DNA of 46,108 nt, taken from a virus. The DNA lies in the IMG/VR virus record IMGVR_UViG_3300045988_154120, positions 1 to 46,108 of that record; one strand, given 5' to 3'. The notes beneath the pieces were generated by a model. The model saw only the letters and a list, made by a program, of their open reading frames with translations, had not been told where the DNA came from and made no database searches. The translations under genes and the position numbers were made by a program. Shown here in pieces: positions 1 to 46,108 of this stretch. Each line of letters opens with the position of its first letter. Positions within the stretch are counted from its first letter, which is position 1.

Positions 1-55
1 ACTTTTCCAGCAACTGAGAAAACTTTTCTTTCTTCACATAATAAACATAATTCAC
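1..55. repeat. Terminal 55-bp overlap, identical to 46054..46108; shows the contig is circular with a 46,053-bp unit
   Basis: Base-by-base comparison of the first and last 55 nt gives an exact match. Confidence 0.95.
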
Positions 56-10824: not shown

Positions 10825-11724
10825 CTACTTCCTTTTCGCATAACTCAATGATTCAAGATTCTGCTTTTTCATTTTCCTTGTTGTACGAACATAGATTCTT
10901 GTAGTTTCTAAACTAGAATGGCCCAAAATGTCAGCTAGTTCTGCAATCGCATTTTCACCATTCTGCATCAAATACTGAATTGCAAACAAATGTCTAAATG
11001 CATGAGGATGTACTTTACCAAGCTTAATCCCTCTGCATTTACCAGCAATCATCTTTAAGTCTCTAGACAACACACGAGCGTTTACAGGACTTTTCTTATC
11101 AGAAGATGTAAATATACACCCTTCTTCAATTTTGTTGTCCTTGCAGTATTTAAGGAGCTCCCTTCGCAAGTCTGAACGTAGAATGATTCCTCTACCTTTT
11201 CCTTTGTTCATAACATAGATATTGTCATTCTTTACTGCTTCTACAGTAAAGAACTGTAATTCGCTCAGCCTAATTCCCGTATACCCAAACACCTTCATAA
11301 TCTCGTATAAGTCCATACGATTGATTTCACGGGCTTTTTTCAGTAGTCTTTGAAATTCATTAGGCTCTAGAATATCATCCAAAGAATCATCTTTCTGGAC
11401 TCTTACGTTCTTCAATAAATTCTTTGAATAATATTTCTTTAGCTTAAGAAAATTAAAATCATCATCTGAATCAATGATTTCCGCATATTTAATAAATTTA
11501 TTAATAATCACGATATAATTATTCACTGTACTGATTTTATAATCATGCAGCAGTTTATCTTTAACAGTAACTATATCGCTCTTTTTTATTTCACCATCAG
11601 GCAATGAGTTAACAAACAAAGTAGCAACATGCTTGTATTTACGAATGGTATTCTTACTTTTTTCATCCGCTGTTTCTTCTTCAATAAACCCGTCAATTTT
11701 TGTTTGTAACTCATCCTTAGTCAT
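10825..11724 (-). CDS. Second tyrosine recombinase (XerC/D-like, 299 aa)
   Basis: The catalytic set is visible: TGIRLSEL (Arg), HPHAFRHLFA (His-x-x-Arg) and GHSSLETTRIYV (His...Tyr). An N-terminal SAM-like domain is present. Confidence 0.85.
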   Translation of the reverse strand: MTKDELQTKIDGFIEEETADEKSKNTIRKYKHVATLFVNSLPDGEIKKSDIVTVKDKLLHDYKISTVNNYIVIINKFIKYAEIIDSDDDFNFLKLKKYYSKNLLKNVRVQKDDSLDDILEPNEFQRLLKKAREINRMDLYEIMKVFGYTGIRLSELQFFTVEAVKNDNIYVMNKGKGRGIILRSDLRRELLKYCKDNKIEEGCIFTSSDKKSPVNARVLSRDLKMIAGKCRGIKLGKVHPHAFRHLFAIQYLMQNGENAIAELADILGHSSLETTRIYVRTTRKMKKQNLESLSYAKRK

Positions 11725-13989: not shown

Positions 13990-14403
13990 GTGAAAATTGT
14001 GGAAGAACATATTGGGTCGAGAATATATAAAGTACGTAAGCATTTAAATTTGAGTATGGAAAAATTCGGTAAACAAATAGGTATCTCAAAAGGTTCAATC
14101 AATAACATCGAAAAAGGAACTACCAATCCATCAAGTCAAACTATCAATTCTATATGTCGAGAATTCAATGTTGACTATGTGTGGTTAACAGATGGCATTG
14201 GAGACAATATGTTCGTTTCTATACCTGATTCAAAAATAGATCAACTAATCGAAGATTACGGCTTAAAACCAGAAGATAAATGGCTTGTGCGAGGATACCT
14301 TGAAGCACCACCTGATATAAAACAACAAGTTGCAGATTATTTGTGGTCAATTGTAAATAGAGAATTAGCTAAAAGAGAAAAAGAAAAGAGTAACAAGAAA
14401 TAA
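13990..14403 (+). CDS. CI-like XRE-family repressor (137 aa; alternative GTG start at 13999)
   Basis: HTH IYKVRKHLNLSMEKFGKQIGISKGSINNIEKG plus a C-terminal domain. It is divergent from the early operon. Confidence 0.8.
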   Translation: MKIVEEHIGSRIYKVRKHLNLSMEKFGKQIGISKGSINNIEKGTTNPSSQTINSICREFNVDYVWLTDGIGDNMFVSIPDSKIDQLIEDYGLKPEDKWLVRGYLEAPPDIKQQVADYLWSIVNRELAKREKEKSNKK

Positions 14404-14490: not shown

Positions 14491-14817
14491 TTAATCAAAG
14501 ATTGATTGTACTGCATCTAGTACTTCTTGAAGAATGTGTCGAGGGCATTCTTCTTTTTTTGTTACTTTTCGTGCTTTTAAATCAAGGGTTTTTACATGTT
14601 CACATAAAACACATCCTGTAGTTTTCATTTTGGGGTCTAAAGGAATATGCATAGGGAAATTTTTCGTATTATTTGTAATAGGGCAAATAATATACAATCC
14701 CATAATTCTATTATAATCATCATTCGATATGATCAAGCACGGTCTGTCACCTGCTTGTTCATGGCCTCTAACGGGGTCTAAATTTGTGAACACTATATCG
14801 CCTTGTTTGTAGTACAT
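14491..14817 (-). CDS. mazF: MazF/PemK-family endoribonuclease toxin
   Basis: GDIVFTNLDPVRGHEQAGDRPCLIIS...ICPIT is typical of PemK/MazF. Its ATG overlaps the stop of the antitoxin gene. Confidence 0.85.
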   Translation of the reverse strand: MYYKQGDIVFTNLDPVRGHEQAGDRPCLIISNDDYNRIMGLYIICPITNNTKNFPMHIPLDPKMKTTGCVLCEHVKTLDLKARKVTKKEECPRHILQEVLDAVQSIFD

Positions 14818-15712: not shown

Positions 15713-15821
15713 TACACATAAAAAAAGGAAGCAGTGTCGTTTTCAAGACTGCCCCCTCAAAACTAATGTTTTTCCTTGCACCTATAGTTTAACACAGATT
15801 AATAATAGATGTCACATTTAT

Positions 15822-15883
15822 AACAACTTATTCATCATATCAACAATGCTCTTATCTTTCGTATCAAACCAGTGTGCATATGT
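15822..15883. repeat. Orphan copy of the integrase 3' end: a 62-bp direct repeat of 16641..16702 with 2 mismatches
   Basis: Aligned by eye as AACAA(C/G)TTATTCATCATATCAACAATGCTCTTATCTTT(C/T)GTATCAAACCAGTGTGCATATGT. Confidence 0.85.
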
Positions 15884-16555: not shown

Positions 16556-16636
16556 AGATTAACTCCTCCTATTCTATCTAAATATTACTTTAAGTGGAAA
16601 GAAAATACAATACTTTGTTAGTTGAAACTAACACTT

Positions 16637-17734
16637 TCACAACAAGTTATTCATCATATCAACAATGCTCTTATCTTTTGTATCAAACCAGTGTGCATAT
16701 GTATTGTGCAATGTTTCAACTGTATCTCCTAAGCGTTTGGCTATGTCAAAATCTGAGAATCCAGCTCCTGCCATGTTATTAATTAGAAATGATGCATGTG
16801 AATGTCTAAAATCATGAATTCTTATTTTAGGCAATTCCTCATCTTTTTCTTTCGCCTTATTGTATGCATCATCAAATCTTCTTTGTACTGTCTGAGGTGA
16901 TATTGGTTTATAATATCCAAATACAAATTTATCTTTTGTGAAATCATCCCATTTAGAACATTCTAAAAACCATTCTCGAAGCATTTTAGACAAAGTATTA
17001 GGCATTGTGATAGTTCTATAGCTATTGTTTGTTTTTGGCGGTGTAAGCCATTTATCAGGGTCTTTCTCTTTGTATCTATATGTTTTGTTGATGTCTATAG
17101 TTTGTTTTCTAAAATCAATGTCCTTCCATTGTAGGGCCATTGCTTCACCTTTTCGTAATCCCATATAGAATAAAACAGAATAAAAGCATTTCATCATTTG
17201 TTCATCTACTTCTTCAATGAATAAATCAAAATCATATTGCTGCCATATTGTCATTTCTTCTTTTCTTTCATTCAATCTGAGATCACGTTTCACATATGTC
17301 ATTGGATTGGTTGGAATGTATTCAGAAGTAACGCCAAATTTATATAGCTTATTTAAAAAGAAATATATTCTTGATACATATGCCTTTGAATATTTATCAT
17401 CAAATTTGTTGATCAAGTTTTGCATTTGCCTTTTATCTAGAAAATCAATATCTTTCATTTCCTTAGAAAGAACATTGTACAAATATTCATCTGATTTTAG
17501 TGTTGATTCTTTTACATACTTTTTATTATATTCTTTAAAAGCTTTATATAATCTATCAAAATTCATGTCTGATGGAAGCATAAAGAAATCTTTTCTGAAT
17601 TCAACCTCAGCTTTTTGTGCTTCCCATTTAGAATCAAAACCACGCTTACGATATCTCTTTATACATTTGCCATCTTTATATATTTTCCCGGCAAACATAT
17701 ATTTTCCTGTCTTCTTATCTAATTCCACTGCCAT
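16637..17734 (-). CDS. int: Phage integrase (tyrosine recombinase, 365 aa)
   Basis: GLRKGEA (Arg), IHDFRHSHAS (His-x-x-Arg) and LHNTYAHW (Tyr) are present. It is adjacent to attP-like repeats. Confidence 0.9.
   Translation of the reverse strand: MAVELDKKTGKYMFAGKIYKDGKCIKRYRKRGFDSKWEAQKAEVEFRKDFFMLPSDMNFDRLYKAFKEYNKKYVKESTLKSDEYLYNVLSKEMKDIDFLDKRQMQNLINKFDDKYSKAYVSRIYFFLNKLYKFGVTSEYIPTNPMTYVKRDLRLNERKEEMTIWQQYDFDLFIEEVDEQMMKCFYSVLFYMGLRKGEAMALQWKDIDFRKQTIDINKTYRYKEKDPDKWLTPPKTNNSYRTITMPNTLSKMLREWFLECSKWDDFTKDKFVFGYYKPISPQTVQRRFDDAYNKAKEKDEELPKIRIHDFRHSHASFLINNMAGAGFSDFDIAKRLGDTVETLHNTYAHWFDTKDKSIVDMMNNLL
16641..16702. repeat. Copy of the 62-bp direct repeat that forms the int 3' end (partner at 15822..15883)
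   Basis: Same alignment as for 15822..15883. Confidence 0.85.
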
Positions 17735-40748: not shown

Positions 40749-41119
40749 TTAAATCTGCTCATGAACTCATCCAATTCATCACCTTTTTTTCCGGATACTT
40801 CTGTTGTTTTTGAAAGTGAAGTAGGTGACAAGCCAAGTTCTTTGCAGTACTTCATGATCTGATCACGTAATTGAACGGTAATAATGTAGTATGGCGAGCG
40901 TGATAAATTCGTTGCACCGCCCTTGTTCGTATATTCAACAACCATCTGTAGTGATTTGTAGCCATTTGCTTTACTTGAATCTCTCCATTGCTTCATTGTT
41001 GAATCATATTGGGCCAATGCATCTGCAAGTGAATCAACCGCAACCGAATATTCAGGAGAAAATGTGCCTAAATTCTCTAGTTGTGAATTGATTCTTTTTT
41101 TCCATGCTCCTTTTTGCAT
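40745..41119 (-). CDS. terS: Terminase small subunit (P27 family-like)
   Basis: Assigned from position, size (124 aa) and its association with an HNH gene. Confidence 0.65.
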   Translation of the reverse strand: MQKGAWKKRINSQLENLGTFSPEYSVAVDSLADALAQYDSTMKQWRDSSKANGYKSLQMVVEYTNKGGATNLSRSPYYIITVQLRDQIMKYCKELGLSPTSLSKTTEVSGKKGDELDEFMSRFK

Positions 41120-41520
41120 TCATCATCCTCCCTTCCACATCCTATAAGCATTCCGTTTTCATCAAACTCAAAAGATGGTTTACGTTTGGAATGTTCTTCT
41201 GCATGACATAAGTCACACAACGCTTCCAAATTAGAATCGCCAAATAGAATGTGTACATCTCTATAGTTGTCCTGGTCAATGTGCACTTTGTGGTGCACGC
41301 AAGTCGACCTGGTATAGATACCTTTTTTCAAACATCTTTCACAAAGTGGATGTGCCTTTCTATACGCTTTGCTTTTCTTTTCCCAAGCCTTGCTTGAGTA
41401 AAATTTTCTAGCATAATTTCTAGCACCTGTTTTTGTTGCTTCTGAACCATAATATTTTTTCATATCGCTACATTCAAAGTTTTGACCATAACTACAGTTA
41501 ACAGATTTAAAGGACGACAA
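41077..41520 (-). CDS. HNH endonuclease (tracked TTG start at 41520; the ATG at 41463 is more likely)
   Basis: CERC...CVHHKVHID...N...LCDLCHAEEH is an HNH motif. It lies next to the terminase genes, as in HNH-assisted cos packaging. Confidence 0.85.
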   Translation of the reverse strand: MSSFKSVNCSYGQNFECSDMKKYYGSEATKTGARNYARKFYSSKAWEKKSKAYRKAHPLCERCLKKGIYTRSTCVHHKVHIDQDNYRDVHILFGDSNLEALCDLCHAEEHSKRKPSFEFDENGMLIGCGREDDECKKEHGKKESIHN

Positions 41521-41561
41521 AAACTAACAGTAAATACTTTGAATGCAGTGATATGAAAAAA
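41455..41561. repeat. 26-bp inverted repeat (24/26 identity) enclosing the 5' end of the HNH gene
   Basis: The arms are 41455..41480 (TTTTTTCATATCGCTACATTCAAAGT) and 41536..41561 (ACTTTGAATGCAGTGATATGAAAAAA). Confidence 0.6.
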
Positions 41562-41681
41562 GACCCATGTTTCCACAGATCTTTTTTCAACGGGCACTAA
41601 AATGAAACAATCCAAGAACTACCTTGTTTGTTCTAGAAGATGTTTTCCAATCTTCACGACTACAGAATATCACGGTTTTTC

Positions 41682-41700
41682 TTTGTACACTGTACAAAAT
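41682..41700. promoter_or_regulatory. Copy 2 of TTTGTACACTGTACAAAAT, upstream of the packaging/structural operon
   Basis: Identical to 19495..19513. Confidence 0.6.
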
Positions 41701-42121
41701 GAAGAAATTCAGATTTTACCCCCTTGTCGCACACCCGTGACCCAGTTTTTTTGAACTCCCCACGCCGTTCCCCAAAGTGCAAAAAACTTTTTGAAAGATA
41801 GGGGCGGTCTATGCTGATCTGACCCATGCTATGGCGCTTTCAGGGTTAAAAATCAAACCTATGCAGCTATCACAACGCCGCCACGTTCACGGCTTCAGTC
41901 ATATGACATTTATATATTTGTTATTGTGTTGAAAGATGTTTCAACATGCATTGTTGAAAGCGTTGTTTCATAACATGGCCATGACTACATTAATAGAACA
42001 CACGCGCACGTTCTTATATATGCAATAAGTCTTGCATCACTCCAATATATTGGATTATATATATCAACTCCATACACTCCAACACGTCCATTGTCTTCCT
42101 GGAACTGAAGCAAACCCCCAC

Positions 42122-42146
42122 AAAAAAAAGGACGTTCACAACGTCC
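42122..42146 (-). terminator. Strong minus-strand intrinsic terminator
   Basis: GGACGTT-GTG-AACGTCC followed by T8 when read on the minus strand. Confidence 0.7.
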
Positions 42147-42316
42147 ATACATGTATATATTACTAGTCTGTTAACTATATGTTATAAGACTAGAACCGAA
42201 CACGCTTAAAAGCCTTTTAAATAGGCACTTGCGTGCATGTTTGAAAAGATAAAAGCTTTTTGAAAAAATGAGCACTAAAAAAAATAAGTTTAGGAGGTGT
42301 AAACATAGAAGAAAAA

Positions 42317-42340
42317 AGACACGCTCAATTTTGCGTGTCT
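42317..42340 (-). terminator. Hairpin at the XRE gene stop
   Basis: AGACACGC-N8-GCGTGTCT with a T-run on the minus strand. Confidence 0.5.
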
Positions 42341-42581
42341 AGTCTTTGTTTTCTTGTATATCATTTATATTTAATTCAATTATTTTTTCTTTTGTTGTCT
42401 TGTCAATTATATTTATTTCCAAGCCCATCCAATCGCATAACTTTATAAACTCACCTAAATTCATTCTATCGTTTGAAATCGTGTTACTTAATGATTGACG
42501 CGTACGGTTTATATGTTTTGCGTATTCTATTTGTGTTTTGTTTCGCATCGTGAACAACGCTTTTATTTTCTCTTTTAACAT
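42339..42581 (-). CDS. XRE-family HTH regulator (80 aa from the internal Met)
   Basis: MLKEKIKALFTMRNKTQIEYAKHINRTRQSLSNTISNDRMNL is an HTH. The N-terminal 57 codons of the tracked ORF cover the promoter region and are probably not translated. Confidence 0.7.
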   Translation of the reverse strand: MLKEKIKALFTMRNKTQIEYAKHINRTRQSLSNTISNDRMNLGEFIKLCDWMGLEINIIDKTTKEKIIELNINDIQENKD

Positions 42582-42623
42582 TTTTTGCCGTCCTTTCTTT
42601 ATGTGTATATTATCATATTTACT

Positions 42624-42708
42624 TTGTAAATTCAAACTACAACGTTGTAAATAAAAAATATTACATTCTATTATTGACAATGTAATATTTATGATGTACA
42701 TTGTAAAT
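42624..42708. promoter_or_regulatory. Divergent control region: three TTGTAAAT boxes, plus TTGACA-N17-TACATT driving the plus-strand operon
   Basis: TTGTAAAT occurs at 42624, 42645 and 42701. The -35 is at 42674..42679 and the -10 at 42697..42702. Confidence 0.5.
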
Positions 42709-42745
42709 GTCTTAAGAGACAAGCCACACGAAAGGAGGTGCAAAC

Positions 42746-42913
42746 GTGGCAAAGTATAAACGTAGCAAACCGATGAAACGTCGCGATAGAAAAAAGCGCG
42801 AAAAAAAAGAGCGCATGATTTCGTACCTATCCAAAACGTTCGAAATTATATACACGCTCTTAATCGGTGAAGCCCTCAAGCTTCTTGCTAAATATCTAAG
42901 TGACTTATTTTAG
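42746..42913 (+). CDS. 55-aa protein with a very basic N-terminus and amphipathic C-terminus (GTG start, missed by the ORF track)
   Basis: AGGAGG lies 6 nt upstream. Manual translation gives (M)AKYKRSKPMKRRDRKKREKKERMISYLSKTFEIIYTLLIGEALKLLAKYLSDLF. A hairpin follows at 42896..42922. Confidence 0.5.
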   Translation: MAKYKRSKPMKRRDRKKREKKERMISYLSKTFEIIYTLLIGEALKLLAKYLSDLF

Positions 42914-43040
42914 TCACTTAGGTACTTATATTATACCACGTTTTAAAATATGGAACTACTAAAAATAGCGTTATTACTATCGTTAGCATTTAATGCATAT
43001 CTTTTAAAAAAAATAATTGAAAAGTAAGGAGGTAAAGATT

Positions 43041-43541
43041 ATGTGTGAAATGAAAGCTTATATTACAAATTTAGGAAAATATAACGAGGGTGAATTGGTT
43101 GGAAAGTGGATCAGTTTCCCAATCGATGAGGACGATTTTCAAGATAAACTTGAAAGCATTGGAGTGAAAGAAAACACAATGTATGAAGAGTGGTTTATAA
43201 CTGATTATTATTGTTCATTGTTCGATATGTATGATGCATTCGGTGAATATCCAAGTATTGACGATATTAACGAAGTGGCTGAAGCATTAGAAGATAATGA
43301 AAGTGTATTCACTGCTTTATTGGAAGTATGCAGCTATGAGGACGCTTTAAAATACTTAAAAAGTGAAAATTATACTTTTTATCAGGGTATGACGTTGGAA
43401 GATGTAGCGCATGAATTAATTGAAGAATGTTACAACCTCCCAGAAATTGCACAAAAATATTTTGACTATGAAGCGTTTGCGTGTGATCTTGAGTATGATG
43501 GATATACTGAAACTTCAAACGGAGTTATTTGTTTATGGTAA
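43041..43541 (+). CDS. ardA: ArdA anti-restriction protein
   Basis: YITNLGKYNEGELVGKWISFPIDEDDF... closely parallels Tn916 Orf18/ArdA (YIANLGKYNEGELVG.WF.FPID). AGGAGG precedes the ATG at 43041. Confidence 0.9.
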   Translation: MCEMKAYITNLGKYNEGELVGKWISFPIDEDDFQDKLESIGVKENTMYEEWFITDYYCSLFDMYDAFGEYPSIDDINEVAEALEDNESVFTALLEVCSYEDALKYLKSENYTFYQGMTLEDVAHELIEECYNLPEIAQKYFDYEAFACDLEYDGYTETSNGVICLW

Positions 43542-43684
43542 CCCGCAAAGATCTTGACAAGATGAGCGCCTTCAAGGTGCTCATACTTGCATTTTTAAAA
43601 TTATATTTAGCAGCGTGCACATCTACATTGATCATGGGTATAATATTGGGCCTTTTAAATATCATACTCCCATTTATTTATTAA
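43535..43684 (+). CDS. Possible 49-aa membrane peptide
   Basis: Manual translation gives MVTRKDLDKMSAFKVLILAFLKLYLAACTSTLIMGIILGLLNIILPFIY. Its ATG overlaps the end of ardA. Confidence 0.35.
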   Translation: MVTRKDLDKMSAFKVLILAFLKLYLAACTSTLIMGIILGLLNIILPFIY

Positions 43685-43701
43685 TTGCAGGAGGTTAAAC
43701 A

Positions 43702-43974
43702 ATGGAACTTTTAGAAATTAAATTATTGCATAAATATGCAAGAATAAGATCATATATGAATGATCTTATTTCTGGTAATTTTGTTATATATGATTTTCTT
43801 TATGAATGTCTTGCGGATCATATTAAATCATTTATTTATGATCTTGCTTATATCGAAAATGAAAAAGTTATACGCGTTTATTATGATCAACTTTTAGTTG
43901 ATTCTAAACAAGTAAGCAAAGAACTTTATACACTTGTTATAACTATTTTTGAAGATAATGAATGGAGGTTTTAA
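43702..43974 (+). CDS. Hypothetical protein (90 aa)
   Basis: Tracked ORF with an AGGAGG SD. Confidence 0.55.
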   Translation: MELLEIKLLHKYARIRSYMNDLISGNFVIYDFLYECLADHIKSFIYDLAYIENEKVIRVYYDQLLVDSKQVSKELYTLVITIFEDNEWRF

Positions 43975-43976
43975 AA

Positions 43977-44207
43977 ATGAATAATAAAGAATATATTGAG
44001 TTTACAGAAAAAAAACTAGATCGACTAAATGGATCTAGCTGCAAGCCTTACACAATTACAAAACATTTAAACGGTTTATATGATCTTAACTATGGTTTAG
44101 ATACCATTGCTTGGATGCTTGAACCGCGCGAGCTTTGGCTACTTGTAAACACATTATATACATTGGATATTTTAGGAGGGCTAAAAAATGACAATGTGGA
44201 AGCGTGA
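43977..44207 (+). CDS. Hypothetical protein (76 aa from the internal Met)
   Basis: A GGAGG SD lies 8 nt upstream of the ATG at 43977. Confidence 0.55.
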   Translation: MNNKEYIEFTEKKLDRLNGSSCKPYTITKHLNGLYDLNYGLDTIAWMLEPRELWLLVNTLYTLDILGGLKNDNVEA

Positions 44208-44778
44208 ACGAAACCATTTTAATTATTATGTTACAAACGAAAGAAAACAACCACACATTTACGTTGAAGCGTTAGGAACTCCAAGCGCTTCAACTGAAAA
44301 AGTTTTAAAAGATCATGGTTTTAAATTTGATCATAATAAATGTATGTATGCAGCAGCTCAAACAAATGACTTGAGGTTGTTCGTGGCGCATGATCTTGAC
44401 AAGCTTTTCAACTATGATATTCAAATATATTTCAATACTGAAGCTAAAAAAGAACTTTTCGCGCCTGATATCCAAGAAATAAAAGATATCTGTTATTATT
44501 TCAAAATTTATAAATGCTATGTTGATATTTTAAATAAGGATCTTTTTAAGATCTGTAAGCCTGGATCAAAAAGCTTGCTAGCAACTTATAATACCAGCTT
44601 TAAAACTATAGATGTTTTTAATAGAAACAAGCTTATAGAAAGCTATGTGTATAATAATGGTAAAATCGAGAAAATGATCGTAGAAAAAGCTGCACCAAAA
44701 AAGAAGAAAGCAGCAACTACAGAAACAGAACAACAAAAAATCAATAAAATGTTAGAAGAGTTTGAGTTTCCATTTTAG
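44188..44778 (+). CDS. Hypothetical protein (196 aa)
   Basis: Tracked ORF with a GGAGGG SD. Confidence 0.6.
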   Translation: MTMWKRERNHFNYYVTNERKQPHIYVEALGTPSASTEKVLKDHGFKFDHNKCMYAAAQTNDLRLFVAHDLDKLFNYDIQIYFNTEAKKELFAPDIQEIKDICYYFKIYKCYVDILNKDLFKICKPGSKSLLATYNTSFKTIDVFNRNKLIESYVYNNGKIEKMIVEKAAPKKKKAATTETEQQKINKMLEEFEFPF

Positions 44779-44791
44779 GGGGTAAAAATAT

Positions 44792-45349
44792 ATGGGATAT
44801 ATTGGAAATAAAATGAGCGTGCGCGCTTATGAAGCTTATGAAAGTGGTGAAAAGCCACTTTCAAAATGGACTAAAAACGATATTATAGAATGCGTTTTAA
44901 ATGTTAGAAATGACTTTCAAGAAAAAGAATTAAAAATTTATAGCAAAGAAGTTTTAAAAGCTTTTCTAATCTGTAGCTCTTGGCATCATACGGGATCATA
45001 TTTCAATGAAACTAATTTCTATAGTTTAGATCTTGATTTTATTGAACTATCAAAAATTGAAATAATCCAGGTACTTGAAAAGAAGAAAAAAGATCTTGAA
45101 AAAGAGAAAGAAGAAAAAAAGATTTTAAAACTTCAAAAATGCAAATTTAAATATATTGAATGGGCCGGAACTCGAAAACATCCAAAAGCAATAGAAAAAG
45201 AATCATACGGCATCATAAAAGGATCATGGATATACTACAAAGACGGCAAAAAGTCATTAAATGGTAAATATGTTCATGTGGTTGAAATGCTTGAACGTGC
45301 ACCGCGCGGAACTGCTGCACTATTTAAACAAATTGAAAAGGACTTGTGA
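44792..45349 (+). CDS. Hypothetical protein (185 aa)
   Basis: Tracked ORF with a GGGGG SD. The N-terminus reads MSVRAYEAYESGEKPLSKWTK. Confidence 0.6.
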   Translation: MGYIGNKMSVRAYEAYESGEKPLSKWTKNDIIECVLNVRNDFQEKELKIYSKEVLKAFLICSSWHHTGSYFNETNFYSLDLDFIELSKIEIIQVLEKKKKDLEKEKEEKKILKLQKCKFKYIEWAGTRKHPKAIEKESYGIIKGSWIYYKDGKKSLNGKYVHVVEMLERAPRGTAALFKQIEKDL

Positions 45350-45363
45350 AAGTCCTTTTTTTA
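45337..45363. terminator. Bidirectional terminator at the convergence of the plus-strand island and the minus-strand early operon
   Basis: AAAGGACTT-GTGA-AAGTCCTTT followed by T-runs. Confidence 0.7.
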
Positions 45364-45912
45364 ATGTCTTCTCATTTCTTTTTGAATCAGCTTTTTTTTG
45401 ACTGGATTCGATGCGAAAAAGTTCATGAAAAGTTTTGTTTTAAACTCGTATTCTTTTTGATCCATTTCTTTTATATCCAAAACTCTTTTAAATATCACTA
45501 TCGCAATAAAGTTTGCAAACAAGTTTGCATCTTTTTCTATTTCCTGATTCTCATAGTGTTTGCTGCTTGAATCCTTATAACTTTCAAGTTCATTTTTCCA
45601 TATAGAAACGCTTCTTTCATCCATAGAAAATACTTTTTGATTCTTCTTATATACACATGCATATTGATATAAATGTCTAATTTCATGAGCTAGATATATA
45701 TAAACTAGACTTCTATCTTTGCATAAATCCAAGTTCACACAAATTACATTTTCTTTAGGGTATGATGTACATATGCTGGTATCTTTCACTTGAAAAAGTT
45801 CTTTATTGATTGGCTTATTTTTAAGATCATAAAACTTTTCATTTTCTTTAAAGTAAACTTTTGGAATCTTTATATTTAATAGTGTGCATAGAAAACTTAC
45901 ATAATCATTCAT
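45361..45912 (-). CDS. Putative zinc metallopeptidase-like protein with an HExxHxxQ motif
   Basis: YIYLAHEIRHLYQY carries the motif; the protein is 183 aa. Confidence 0.5.
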   Translation of the reverse strand: MNDYVSFLCTLLNIKIPKVYFKENEKFYDLKNKPINKELFQVKDTSICTSYPKENVICVNLDLCKDRSLVYIYLAHEIRHLYQYACVYKKNQKVFSMDERSVSIWKNELESYKDSSSKHYENQEIEKDANLFANFIAIVIFKRVLDIKEMDQKEYEFKTKLFMNFFASNPVKKKLIQKEMRRH

Positions 45913-45949
45913 GCATCCATTATATCTGAAAAACTTTATTTTGAAAAAC

Positions 45950-46053
45950 TTATTTATCTAGGATCAAAAAAACTTTTTCAAGTTGTTCTTGAGACGTTGG
46001 AAAAAACTTTTGAGATTCTTTTTCATACTTGCATAGAATCGAACCGTCAAAAA
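45950..46053 (-). CDS. C-terminal 34 codons plus stop of the junction-spanning 95-aa ORF (see 1..184)
   Basis: The frame runs continuously from position 1 to the stop TAA at 45952..45950. Confidence 0.5.
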
Positions 46054-46108
46054 ACTTTTCCAGCAACTGAGAAAACTTTTCTTTCTTCACATAATAAACA
46101 TAATTCAC
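46054..46108. repeat. Terminal overlap, a duplicate of 1..55
   Basis: Exact identity. Confidence 0.95.

Follow-up and report, generated by a model that had tools for sequence, protein, structure and literature searches.

Why would a temperate phage keep an anti-restriction gene beside its packaging site, in a block that runs against the neighboring operons and carries a putative repressor of its own? The question is raised by IMG/VR record IMGVR_UViG_3300045988_154120, all 46,108 nucleotides (nt) of which form the window analyzed here. The first 55 nt of the window (1-55) are identical to the last 55 (46054-46108). Such ends are the signature of a circular assembly, and the window is therefore one complete phage genome of ~46.05 kb, that of a temperate HK97-like cos siphophage. 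At 42339-45349 it contains an island of plus-strand genes led by ardA. We judge it moderately probable that this island is an immediate-early, self-limiting accessory operon that carries incoming DNA past host restriction.

The island was first outlined in a first-pass annotation made from the sequence alone, and every element listed there was recovered at the position it gave. It is the only long plus-strand block in the window: the open reading frames (ORFs) from 42746 to 45349 are on the plus strand, the minus strand carries everything at 207-41520 and 45361-46108 except for a few lysogeny genes, and GC skew is above zero at 43001-45000 only. Shine-Dalgarno sites of the island genes are strong, spacing is tight, and terminators stand at both ends. 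The bidirectional terminator proposed for the downstream end is present at 45336-45359 (-14.3 kcal/mol, z-score [z] = -4.0) and is common to the island and the convergent minus-strand early operon. A second bidirectional hairpin lies just past the end of the repressor gene, at 42317-42340 (-14.4 kcal/mol, z = -4.6), and an intrinsic terminator on the minus strand at 42130-42146 (GGACGTTGTGAACGTCC followed by T8), whose stem is kept in relatives, separates the island switch from cos. Rfam returned only sub-threshold noise over 41000-46108.

The first long gene of the operon, at 43041-43541 on the plus strand, encodes the 166-amino-acid (aa) ArdA, and its predicted identity was upheld in every comparison. 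The protein matched PF07275 at E = 4e-35 (122.1 bits against a cutoff of 27, model positions 1-153 of 155), phrog_2059 at 5e-29, and the ArdA of Tn916 (Orf18, PDB 2W82) at E = 5.8e-19, with residues 2-162 aligned on 2-160. It contains 41 aspartates and glutamates and 10 lysines and arginines, which give it a net charge of about -31, a pI of 4.05 and the acidity expected of a DNA mimic. The ratio of nonsynonymous to synonymous polymorphism (pN/pS) is 0.19. Judged by its sequence, the product is a bona fide member of the ArdA family, and inhibition of Type I restriction-modification enzymes is the family-based prediction.

Pfam, NCBIfam, PHROG and PADLOC were searched with all island proteins and yielded only ArdA and weak hints of a helix-turn-helix (HTH) protein. 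The four ORFs of 90, 76, 196 and 185 aa, in which no family had been recognized at first reading, indeed matched none of these collections. PADLOC produced no match at E < 0.01 among nine proteins and no component of a known defense system. Nucleotide searches in near and distant modes found no DNA-level match of the island to GenBank phages, and terL is at most 48% identical to those of known phages. Dozens of close relatives are nevertheless present in gut metagenomes and IMG/VR. For the comparisons below, we collected the 4.8 kb past cos from 32 loci (31 related contigs and the window itself) and clustered their ORFs.

Cohesive ends and the position of the island

The meaning of an anti-restriction gene at this site depends on where the virion DNA begins. 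The first-pass annotation had expected cos within 41.5-42.3 kb, and the cut does fall there, at 41756|41768. It was located by searching IMG/VR with a conserved 44-mer from just upstream of a G+C-rich patch. In the contigs of two relatives, L033 and L044, an Illumina adapter directly follows ...TTTTTTTGAAC / ...TTTTTTTAAAC (the junction sequences are also given as ...CAGTTTTTTTGAAC / ...GAGTTTTTTTAAAC), and a third contig, L028, terminates at the same base. At the other end of L033's contig, L118, adapter ...GCTCTTCCGATCT is joined to TTCCCCGAAACGC (TTCCCC...). The physical ends are thus seen in relatives, at identical bases in L033, L044, L118 and L028, and the window carries the cos motif unchanged.

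In window coordinates, the left fragment runs up to 41756 and the right one from 41768 on, with an 11-nt overhang, TCCCCACGCCG, at 41757-41767 on the plus strand. The absence of the 11 nt from both ends indicates a 3' overhang, as expected from trimming during end repair; a 5' overhang would have been filled in and would be present on both. The adapter remnants themselves (AGATCGGAAGAGC... / ...GCTCTTCCGATCT) sit at the termini of public contigs IMGVR_UViG_3300045988_146550 and _160163, namely, at the 3' end of L033, at one end of L044 and at the 5' end of L118. They are contamination, yet they mark true physical DNA ends.

Fixed ends with a single-stranded overhang are one hallmark of HK97-like cos packaging; an HNH gene adjacent to terS and terL is another. 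The HNH nuclease gene occupies 41077-41520 on the minus strand (PF01844, 4e-5; phrog_144, 2e-17), and the terS and terL products of relatives carry Terminase_4 and TerL_ATPase/TerL_nuclease. From HNH, the minus strand reads through terS, terL, portal, protease, capsid and tail genes into the lysogeny region, and then through a replication initiator, a DnaC-like loader, a methyltransferase-like gene and many small genes past position 1, wrapping to 46108-45361. The cos motif, (A)AC|TCCCCACGCCGTTCCCC, recurs in phage contigs with otherwise unrelated flanks (L058, positions 90-105; L068; L073, positions 72-87; and L110), which suggests a widespread terminase/cos type.

A hyperconserved noncoding block (41601-41700) separates the HNH gene from the cos cut; it is 99% identical over ~71 related loci, compared with 93-94% for the adjacent HNH coding sequence. 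This block is a candidate terminase-binding, cosB-like site. In lambda, the cosB-type site lies on the side that is packaged first. By that analogy, the location of the block on the HNH/terS side of the cut fits packaging that starts toward terS.

In window orientation, the virion DNA begins at 41768. The distance from there is 0.57 kb to the repressor gene and 0.9 kb to the island promoter, which points inward, while terS-HNH come last. Given this cut, the island occupies one terminus of the virion DNA, with HNH-terS at the other. By analogy with lambda, HK97 and SPP1, the island end would be packaged last and would probably enter the cell first.

The ~500 nt between cos and the island (41768-42283) are conserved and noncoding, and they contain inverted repeats GTTGAAAGATGTTTCAAC, AGAAC..GTTCT and TAGTCT..AGACTA. 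Since the island blocks read-through from the early operon, the late promoter of HNH-terS must lie within 41520-42339. A terminator-like hairpin with A and T runs on its flanks is found at 41557-41590, directly upstream of the HNH start, where it could serve to insulate the late operon or to control entry into it.

Two interchangeable regulatory cassettes and one slot

The first-pass annotation had given the island a divergent XRE switch of its own, and a divergent regulator gene is indeed present. A dedicated regulator of 80 aa, encoded at 42339-42581 on the minus strand with an ATG start and an AAGGA ribosome-binding site, stands apart from the main CI-like immunity repressor gene (13990-14403, plus strand). 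We regard it as a CI/XRE-like HTH protein and as the putative repressor of the island. A 137-aa ORF with a TTG start was also considered as the regulator gene and was rejected as an artifact, the ATG start with its ribosome-binding site being preferred. The family matches of the 80-aa protein are weak (phrog_38278, 3e-5; PezA antitoxin, 5e-4; phrog_3 repressor, 2e-3); it had no match in Pfam and none in a PDB sequence search. Other alleles encode a 68-aa regulator, which aligns with the 80-aa protein over a typical HTH. Both match phrog_38278, and the 68-aa form reaches 8e-4 against PF07022 Phage_CI_repr (20.1 bits against a cutoff of 22). A joint profile of the two found XRE-type HTH proteins as its best, though weak, matches in PDB (E = 0.017-0.9).

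The divergent promoter, TTGACA-17-TACATT, was confirmed at 42674-42702 on the plus strand. Promoter-like matches taken alone are not above chance in number (22 found versus 25 expected); a TTGACA promoter is found at the equivalent position in every switch allele of the relatives. The three reported TTGTAAAT boxes are likewise in place, at 42624, 42645 and 42701. The whole window contains 12 copies of this sequence versus 7.5 expected, and three of these fall inside 85 nt (42624-42708). We designate this interval a putative operator region; it also holds the palindrome TACAACGTTGTA and a 10-nt inverted repeat, AATATTACAT...ATGTAATATT, that flanks the -35 element, so that repeated and palindromic operator-like elements overlap the promoter, as is typical of HTH repressors. 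Other regulator alleles have different repeats at the same place.

The layout of the island is constant in the 32 loci: a regulatory cassette, a slot gene, a 49-aa membrane peptide, an optional 90-aa protein, the 76-aa and 196-aa proteins, in many loci the 185-aa protein, and occasional extras, followed by the convergent early operon. The regulatory cassette itself exists in two nonhomologous forms, class I with a divergent HTH gene and class II with an in-line ribbon-helix-helix (RHH) gene.

Class I comprises the window and 15 relatives. Its order is a divergent gene for a 68- to 80-aa HTH protein, the promoter, a gene for a basic protein of 52-55 aa, a stem-loop and a micro-ORF of 25 codons. 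At least four regulator sub-alleles occur, and the repeated motifs around the promoter differ from one to the next. The basic protein of the window (55 aa; 42746-42913, plus strand) has a GTG start after GGAGGTG; its N-terminal half is Lys/Arg-rich and its C-terminal helix amphipathic. It is part of the switch cassette, being present in all 16 class I loci as two main alleles of the same architecture; its pN/pS of 0.68 indicates weak coding constraint.

The stem-loop and the micro-ORF were both missed at first reading. The former (42893-42924, plus strand) overlaps the stop codon of the 55-aa ORF. It occurs as four sequence alleles, all of which fold, with stems of 12-15 bp, energies of -17 to -20 kcal/mol and z = -5.8 to -6.7, and it shows compensatory changes, e.g., GTGAC/GTCAC to AAGGC/GCCTT. 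Lacking a U-tract, it is not a canonical terminator. The micro-ORF (42950-43027, plus strand) encodes a hydrophobic peptide of 25 aa, MELLKIALLLSLAFNAYLLKKIIEK, and its stop codon overlaps the Shine-Dalgarno sequence of ardA. It has no Shine-Dalgarno sequence of its own, yet it is found in 16 of 16 class I loci, in six variants that are always 25 codons long, whichever slot gene follows.

Class II has no divergent gene. Here, TTGACA-[palindrome]-TATAAT is followed by a leader of ~300 nt and then by the RHH gene. The palindrome in the promoter spacer co-varies with the sequence of the RHH beta-strand: ATATGCATGCATAT pairs with YRKYE[IF]RV, palindromes with a GTTATAAC core pair with HYKRVTVLV, and L016 and L039 have other pairings. 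Such co-variation is the comparative signature expected of an autorepressor and its operator. The class II RHH genes (L005, L016, L022, L037, L039 and L053; ~830-900 nt past cos) have an apparent ATT or ATA start 5-6 nt after a perfect AGGAGGTG; a noncanonical start of this kind would keep translation of the RHH repressor low.

Traces of exchange between the two forms are visible in the window. Homology to relatives breaks at 42283, 42847 and 43534. The first breakpoint is marked by the scar of a class II cassette (42283-42312, plus strand), in which aagtttaggaggtgtaaacATAgaagaaaaa corresponds to the RHH gene of class II relatives at its ribosome-binding site and start; a Shine-Dalgarno sequence and the first codons remain, without a promoter. 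The breakpoints at 42847 and 43534 coincide with the boundaries of the slot. Both cassettes also occur in tandem beside cos in L073 (340-1230), an unrelated phage with the same cos motif. There, a promoter with palindrome and an RHH gene (ATG start) are accompanied by a divergent HTH gene of the 68-aa type with a TTGACA promoter, and ~2 kb of inward-facing small genes, including one for a GntR-like protein, lie downstream.

The slot is where gene content turns over. ArdA occupies it in 10 of the loci and is otherwise replaced by a member of one of four families, c12, c13, c17 or c27. These belong to no annotated family and resemble neither ArdA nor one another in hhalign comparisons (probabilities of <1%). 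The possibility that they are diverged ArdA proteins was rejected on the same hhalign probabilities and for want of a Pfam ArdA match. Two of them resemble ArdA in charge: c13 (156 aa) has 41 acidic and 11 basic residues (Asp and Glu versus Lys and Arg), c17 (184 aa) has 51 and 14, and both have a pI of 4.05. The turnover typical of anti-defense genes is thus found at the ArdA position itself and not among the unassigned genes downstream.

The comparisons establish the gene content, the identity of ArdA, the position of cos, the layout of the operon, the exchange of cassettes and, in relatives, the co-variation of operator and regulator; from these we infer the timing of expression, the repression, the order of entry and the activities of the proteins other than the family assignment of ArdA. 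With its promoter ~0.9 kb from the cos end and pointing inward, the island would, by analogy, be packaged last and probably enter first. Host sigma-A RNA polymerase would fire the near-consensus promoter on arrival, giving the small basic protein, ArdA and the downstream proteins. ArdA, as a DNA-mimic dimer, would sit in the groove by which Type I restriction-modification enzymes bind DNA, so that the unmodified genome is protected; in other relatives, whichever slot protein is present would neutralize these enzymes. The divergent CI/XRE-like repressor would meanwhile accumulate, bind the boxes overlapping the promoter (TTGTAAAT and inverted repeat), and shut the operon. It would also keep the operon closed in the lysogen, where ArdA would disarm the host, much as Aca proteins do at anti-CRISPR operons. 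The ArdA position would be a swappable slot, and the membrane peptide and the 76-, 196- and 185-aa proteins would be lineage-specific factors of establishment or host takeover.

Two comparisons support this account of an immediate-early operon. ArdA genes lie 3-5 kb from the right end and face inward in phages of Mycobacterium, Rhodococcus, Gordonia and Paenibacillus, and the unrelated L073 has the same cos-adjacent, inward-facing, regulator-led block. Several points weigh on the other side. The core genes do not evolve fast but are conserved, they lack anti-defense homology, and the regulator falls below every curated family threshold. The box at 42701 lies within a leader that is common to alleles with different regulators and may not be an allele-specific operator. 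Timing is deduced from layout, and an operon expressed from the prophage may also be compatible with it. Siphophages may eject their DNA so quickly that the order of entry is of no consequence, and the order itself is an analogy: last-in-first-out has been challenged for lambda in vitro, where either end can be ejected first (PMC10287942).

Downstream genes and the competing explanations

The same lambda result favors a different explanation of the position, namely, that the cos-adjacent site is no more than a permissive junction of modules, with the early operon ending on one side and the packaging module on the other, and gathers accessory genes irrespective of entry order. This is possible, if short of an even chance. 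The island sits exactly between two convergent/divergent modules and is bounded by terminators, the breakpoints at 42283, 42847 and 43534 show frequent recombination, and cos-proximal accessory hotspots are known in P2/P4 (PMC9122126). A mere boundary would not account as readily for the recurrence of ArdA near a physical end, facing inward, in several independent phage groups, or for that of an end-proximal, inward-oriented promoter in L073.

The genes downstream of the slot raise a further question, whether anti-defense extends beyond the slot at all. The first-pass annotation had proposed the four unassigned ORFs as new anti-defense genes. They are under purifying selection (pN/pS of 0.17-0.32) and are therefore real genes, but they are mostly conserved (the 76- and 196-aa genes in 30-31 of 32 loci), which leaves the proposal weak. 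The structure search it had suggested for anti-defense likeness assigned no known anti-defense fold to the 185- and 196-aa proteins.

The membrane peptide comes first (49 aa; 43535-43684, plus strand). It has a charged N terminus, MVTRKDLDK, followed by ~37 hydrophobic residues, and it is present in 30 of 32 loci; its start coincides with the breakpoint at 43534, and its pN/pS of 0.56 is the weaker signal in the group. The 5' part of this ORF contains a strong hairpin (43562-43584; -20 kcal/mol, z = -5.3), located ~20 nt past the ArdA stop codon and 28 nt downstream of the breakpoint. The optional 90-aa gene (43702-43974, plus strand) encodes an acidic protein (pI 4.6) with no family match; it is found in 16 of the 32 loci and has a pN/pS of 0.22. 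The 76-aa protein (43977-44207, plus strand) belongs to the core, being encoded in 31 of 32 loci with a pN/pS of 0.21, and all of its 212 homologs are within this phage lineage.

The second core protein, of 196 aa (44188-44778, plus strand), is encoded in 30 of 32 loci and has the lowest pN/pS, 0.17. Its family is restricted to the lineage: 23 clusters were found among 1.84 billion representatives, and an exhaustive HMMER search recovered its own lineage only. An AlphaFold2 (AF2) model (predicted local distance difference test [pLDDT] score of 75.8) had no fold match in PDB by Foldseek. The protein consists of a beta-rich body, a Lys-rich linker and a C-terminal tip, ...QQKINKMLEEFEFPF. The tip, ...QQ.[IL]N.M..[ED][EDA]F(EF)PF, is invariant, while the linker upstream varies by indels (region 44700-44778, ...INKMLEEFEFPF). 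It resembles the C-terminal tip of Firmicute single-stranded DNA-binding protein (SSB), ...QQPINISADDLPF (...INISADDLPF), and no other ORF in the window has such an end.

The 185-aa protein (44792-45349, plus strand) is encoded in 22 of the 32 loci and has the invariant motifs MS..A..AY..GE.P.SKW, SSWHHT and GTRKHPKA. Its family numbers 173 homologs (about 170 clusters) that share MS..A, P..W.K, SWHH and G.R.HP, none of them with a Pfam domain. Large mobile elements also carry homologs, within long arrays of small genes, as do a few Firmicute plasmids; the plasmid contexts gave no clear signal. For its AF2 model (pLDDT of 88.9), Foldseek found no PDB match at E < 0.6 and, in BFVD, two uncharacterized proteins only. 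PDB sequence searches with the 185- and 196-aa proteins produced no match.

These genes could accordingly form a module of another kind, in which only the first slot is anti-defense and the core (membrane peptide and 76-, 196- and 185-aa proteins) serves DNA establishment, recombination or host takeover. For example, the SSB-like tip of the 196-aa protein may engage or titrate host partner proteins of SSB. The distribution of the core suits this idea (the membrane peptide, 76- and 196-aa genes in 30-31 of 32 loci and the 185-aa gene in 22), as do the pN/pS values of 0.17-0.32 for the 76-, 196- and 185-aa genes and of 0.56 for the membrane peptide, the constancy of an SSB-like tip on a variable linker, and the lack of a canonical SSB among the 20 early and lysogeny ORFs scanned. 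The tail similarity, however, was not significant: hhalign against a plasmid SSB aligned the last 15 residues only (E = 0.11), and the 196-aa protein yielded neither a Pfam match to SSB (PF00436) nor an OB or SSB fold. We therefore advance the idea tentatively, as a rather unlikely one. That the island is instead a lysogenic-conversion or superinfection-exclusion moron, expressed in the prophage so that the membrane peptide and unassigned proteins shield the lysogen, is improbable: a promoter and terminators that do not depend on the main immunity region, the conserved small membrane peptide and the defense genes of prophage hotspots near cos in P2-like phages (PMC9122126) would suit a moron, but ArdA is offensive and, if constitutively expressed, would disarm the host's own Type I systems, the pairing of a strong promoter with a dedicated repressor argues for a pulse and not for steady expression, and PADLOC gave no matches.

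Features outside the island complete the picture of the phage. The early operon converges on the island, and its last gene encodes a 183-aa protein with an HExxH motif (HEIRH; 45361-45912, minus strand) and is present in 21 of 32 relatives. An ImmA-like role as partner of the repressor was considered for it and rejected: the gene occurs whatever the regulator allele, and its match is to the DUF6782 metallopeptidase family, below threshold. The early operon of relatives contains more genes of anti-restriction type (L005:16036-16665, L006:17251-17790, L001:19010-19714 and L003:17635-18079), encoding Lar-like restriction alleviation proteins and Dam and N6/N4 methyltransferases; the lineage thus invests in restriction evasion at more than one locus. 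In the lysogeny region, which includes the integrase gene (10825-11724), a MazF-like toxin gene (14491-14817, minus strand; phrog_1936, 3e-27) adjoins the main CI-like repressor gene and is a probable prophage-borne toxin-antitoxin or abortive-infection moron. A 71-nt direct repeat of 93% identity (15813-15883 and 16632-16702, 819 nt apart) marks the lysis/lysogeny boundary. The host is probably a member of the Erysipelotrichaceae, likely Holdemanella. This assignment rests mainly on one homolog of the 76-aa protein that is named from Holdemanella biformis in the NCBI protein database; a scan of GTDB genomes gave one matching metagenome-assembled genome, labeled Solobacterium.

Known systems and the place of this locus

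How far does the proposed operon resemble systems already described? The closest precedents for its placement are gene 0.3 (ocr) of T7 and the pre-early genes of T5, in which a DNA-mimic anti-restriction gene is expressed first, from the leading end, by host RNA polymerase. Genome entry is slow and staged in T7 and T5, whereas HK97-like siphophages are not known to enter in stages. The present phage also differs in being temperate and in adding a dedicated repressor. The right-end early operons of actinobacteriophages and of Paenibacillus phage API480 similarly have ArdA 3-5 kb from the right end, facing inward among many small genes with no assigned role, but their lineages, hosts and regulators are different. 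In the L5 type, it is the main immunity repressor that controls the right-end promoter and not a separate island repressor.

The packaging module follows the HK97 type in its order (HNH-terS-terL-portal-protease-capsid) and in having a cohesive end with a 3' overhang (Kala et al. 2014, as cited in PMC9611059). It departs from that type in that HNH overlaps terS, so that cos lies upstream of HNH and not between HNH and terS; the overhang is 11 nt long. ArdA itself is homologous over its full length to Orf18 of Tn916 (PF07275) and shares its size, extreme acidity and carriage on a mobile element to evade Type I restriction (PMC2731889). Here, in contrast, the gene is carried by a temperate phage, as the first long gene of a putatively repressor-controlled operon beside cos, and is swappable with unrelated genes.

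For the mode of control, the nearest parallel is with Aca-controlled anti-CRISPR operons, in which a strong promoter and a dedicated small regulator produce a burst followed by repression (PMC6765145, PMC9410906). The island shares with them a strong promoter and a small regulator in or beside the operon, divergent HTH in the window and in-line RHH in relatives, with predicted sites in repeats that overlap the promoter; by analogy, the outcome is predicted to be the same. No island protein matched a known anti-CRISPR protein (Acr), ArdA being the only cargo identified, and for lack of an Acr we consider that the island would work like an Aca-controlled operon without being a member of the class. 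It differs, too, in the target of its cargo, which is predicted to be Type I restriction-modification, and in that the regulator gene is divergent and not the last gene of the operon.

Leading regions of conjugative plasmids (ardA, ssb and psiB) place anti-defense genes on the first-entering DNA and express them early (PMC11541004). The island matches them in the logic of ardA placement and in the neighboring 196-aa protein with its SSB-like tail. It differs in that the DNA is injected double stranded and not single stranded and in having no single-stranded-DNA promoters, psiB or true SSB; its order of entry is the analogy made above. An ambitious version of the comparison would make the locus a leading region in phage form, with a plug-in architecture: beside cos, a conserved promoter cassette that represses itself and, after it, a hypervariable slot that has recruited at least four families unrelated to ArdA. 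In this version c13 and c17 would be new DNA-mimic anti-restriction proteins, and the 196-aa protein would be a new mimic of the SSB C-terminal tail which, during establishment, takes over or blocks the SSB interactome of the host. Taken as a whole, we think that unlikely.

ArdA-led early operons near phage genome ends are already known and have been annotated in many phages, and the present locus changes no paradigm. What it adds is a dedicated island repressor in two interchangeable forms, a single slot with ArdA-like acidic alternatives, and a base-level map of cos. Adapters left over in public viral contigs sufficed to place the cohesive ends with single-base precision in an uncultured phage, which brings the leading-end argument to a temperate gut siphophage. 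As a fixed cassette and fixed downstream genes frame one slot, guilt by position nominates c12, c13, c17 and c27 as candidates for anti-restriction or anti-defense proteins, c13 and c17 being those with ArdA-like charge. The two interchangeable repressor solutions suggest that the burst-then-shut-off control of anti-CRISPR operons extends to anti-restriction genes.

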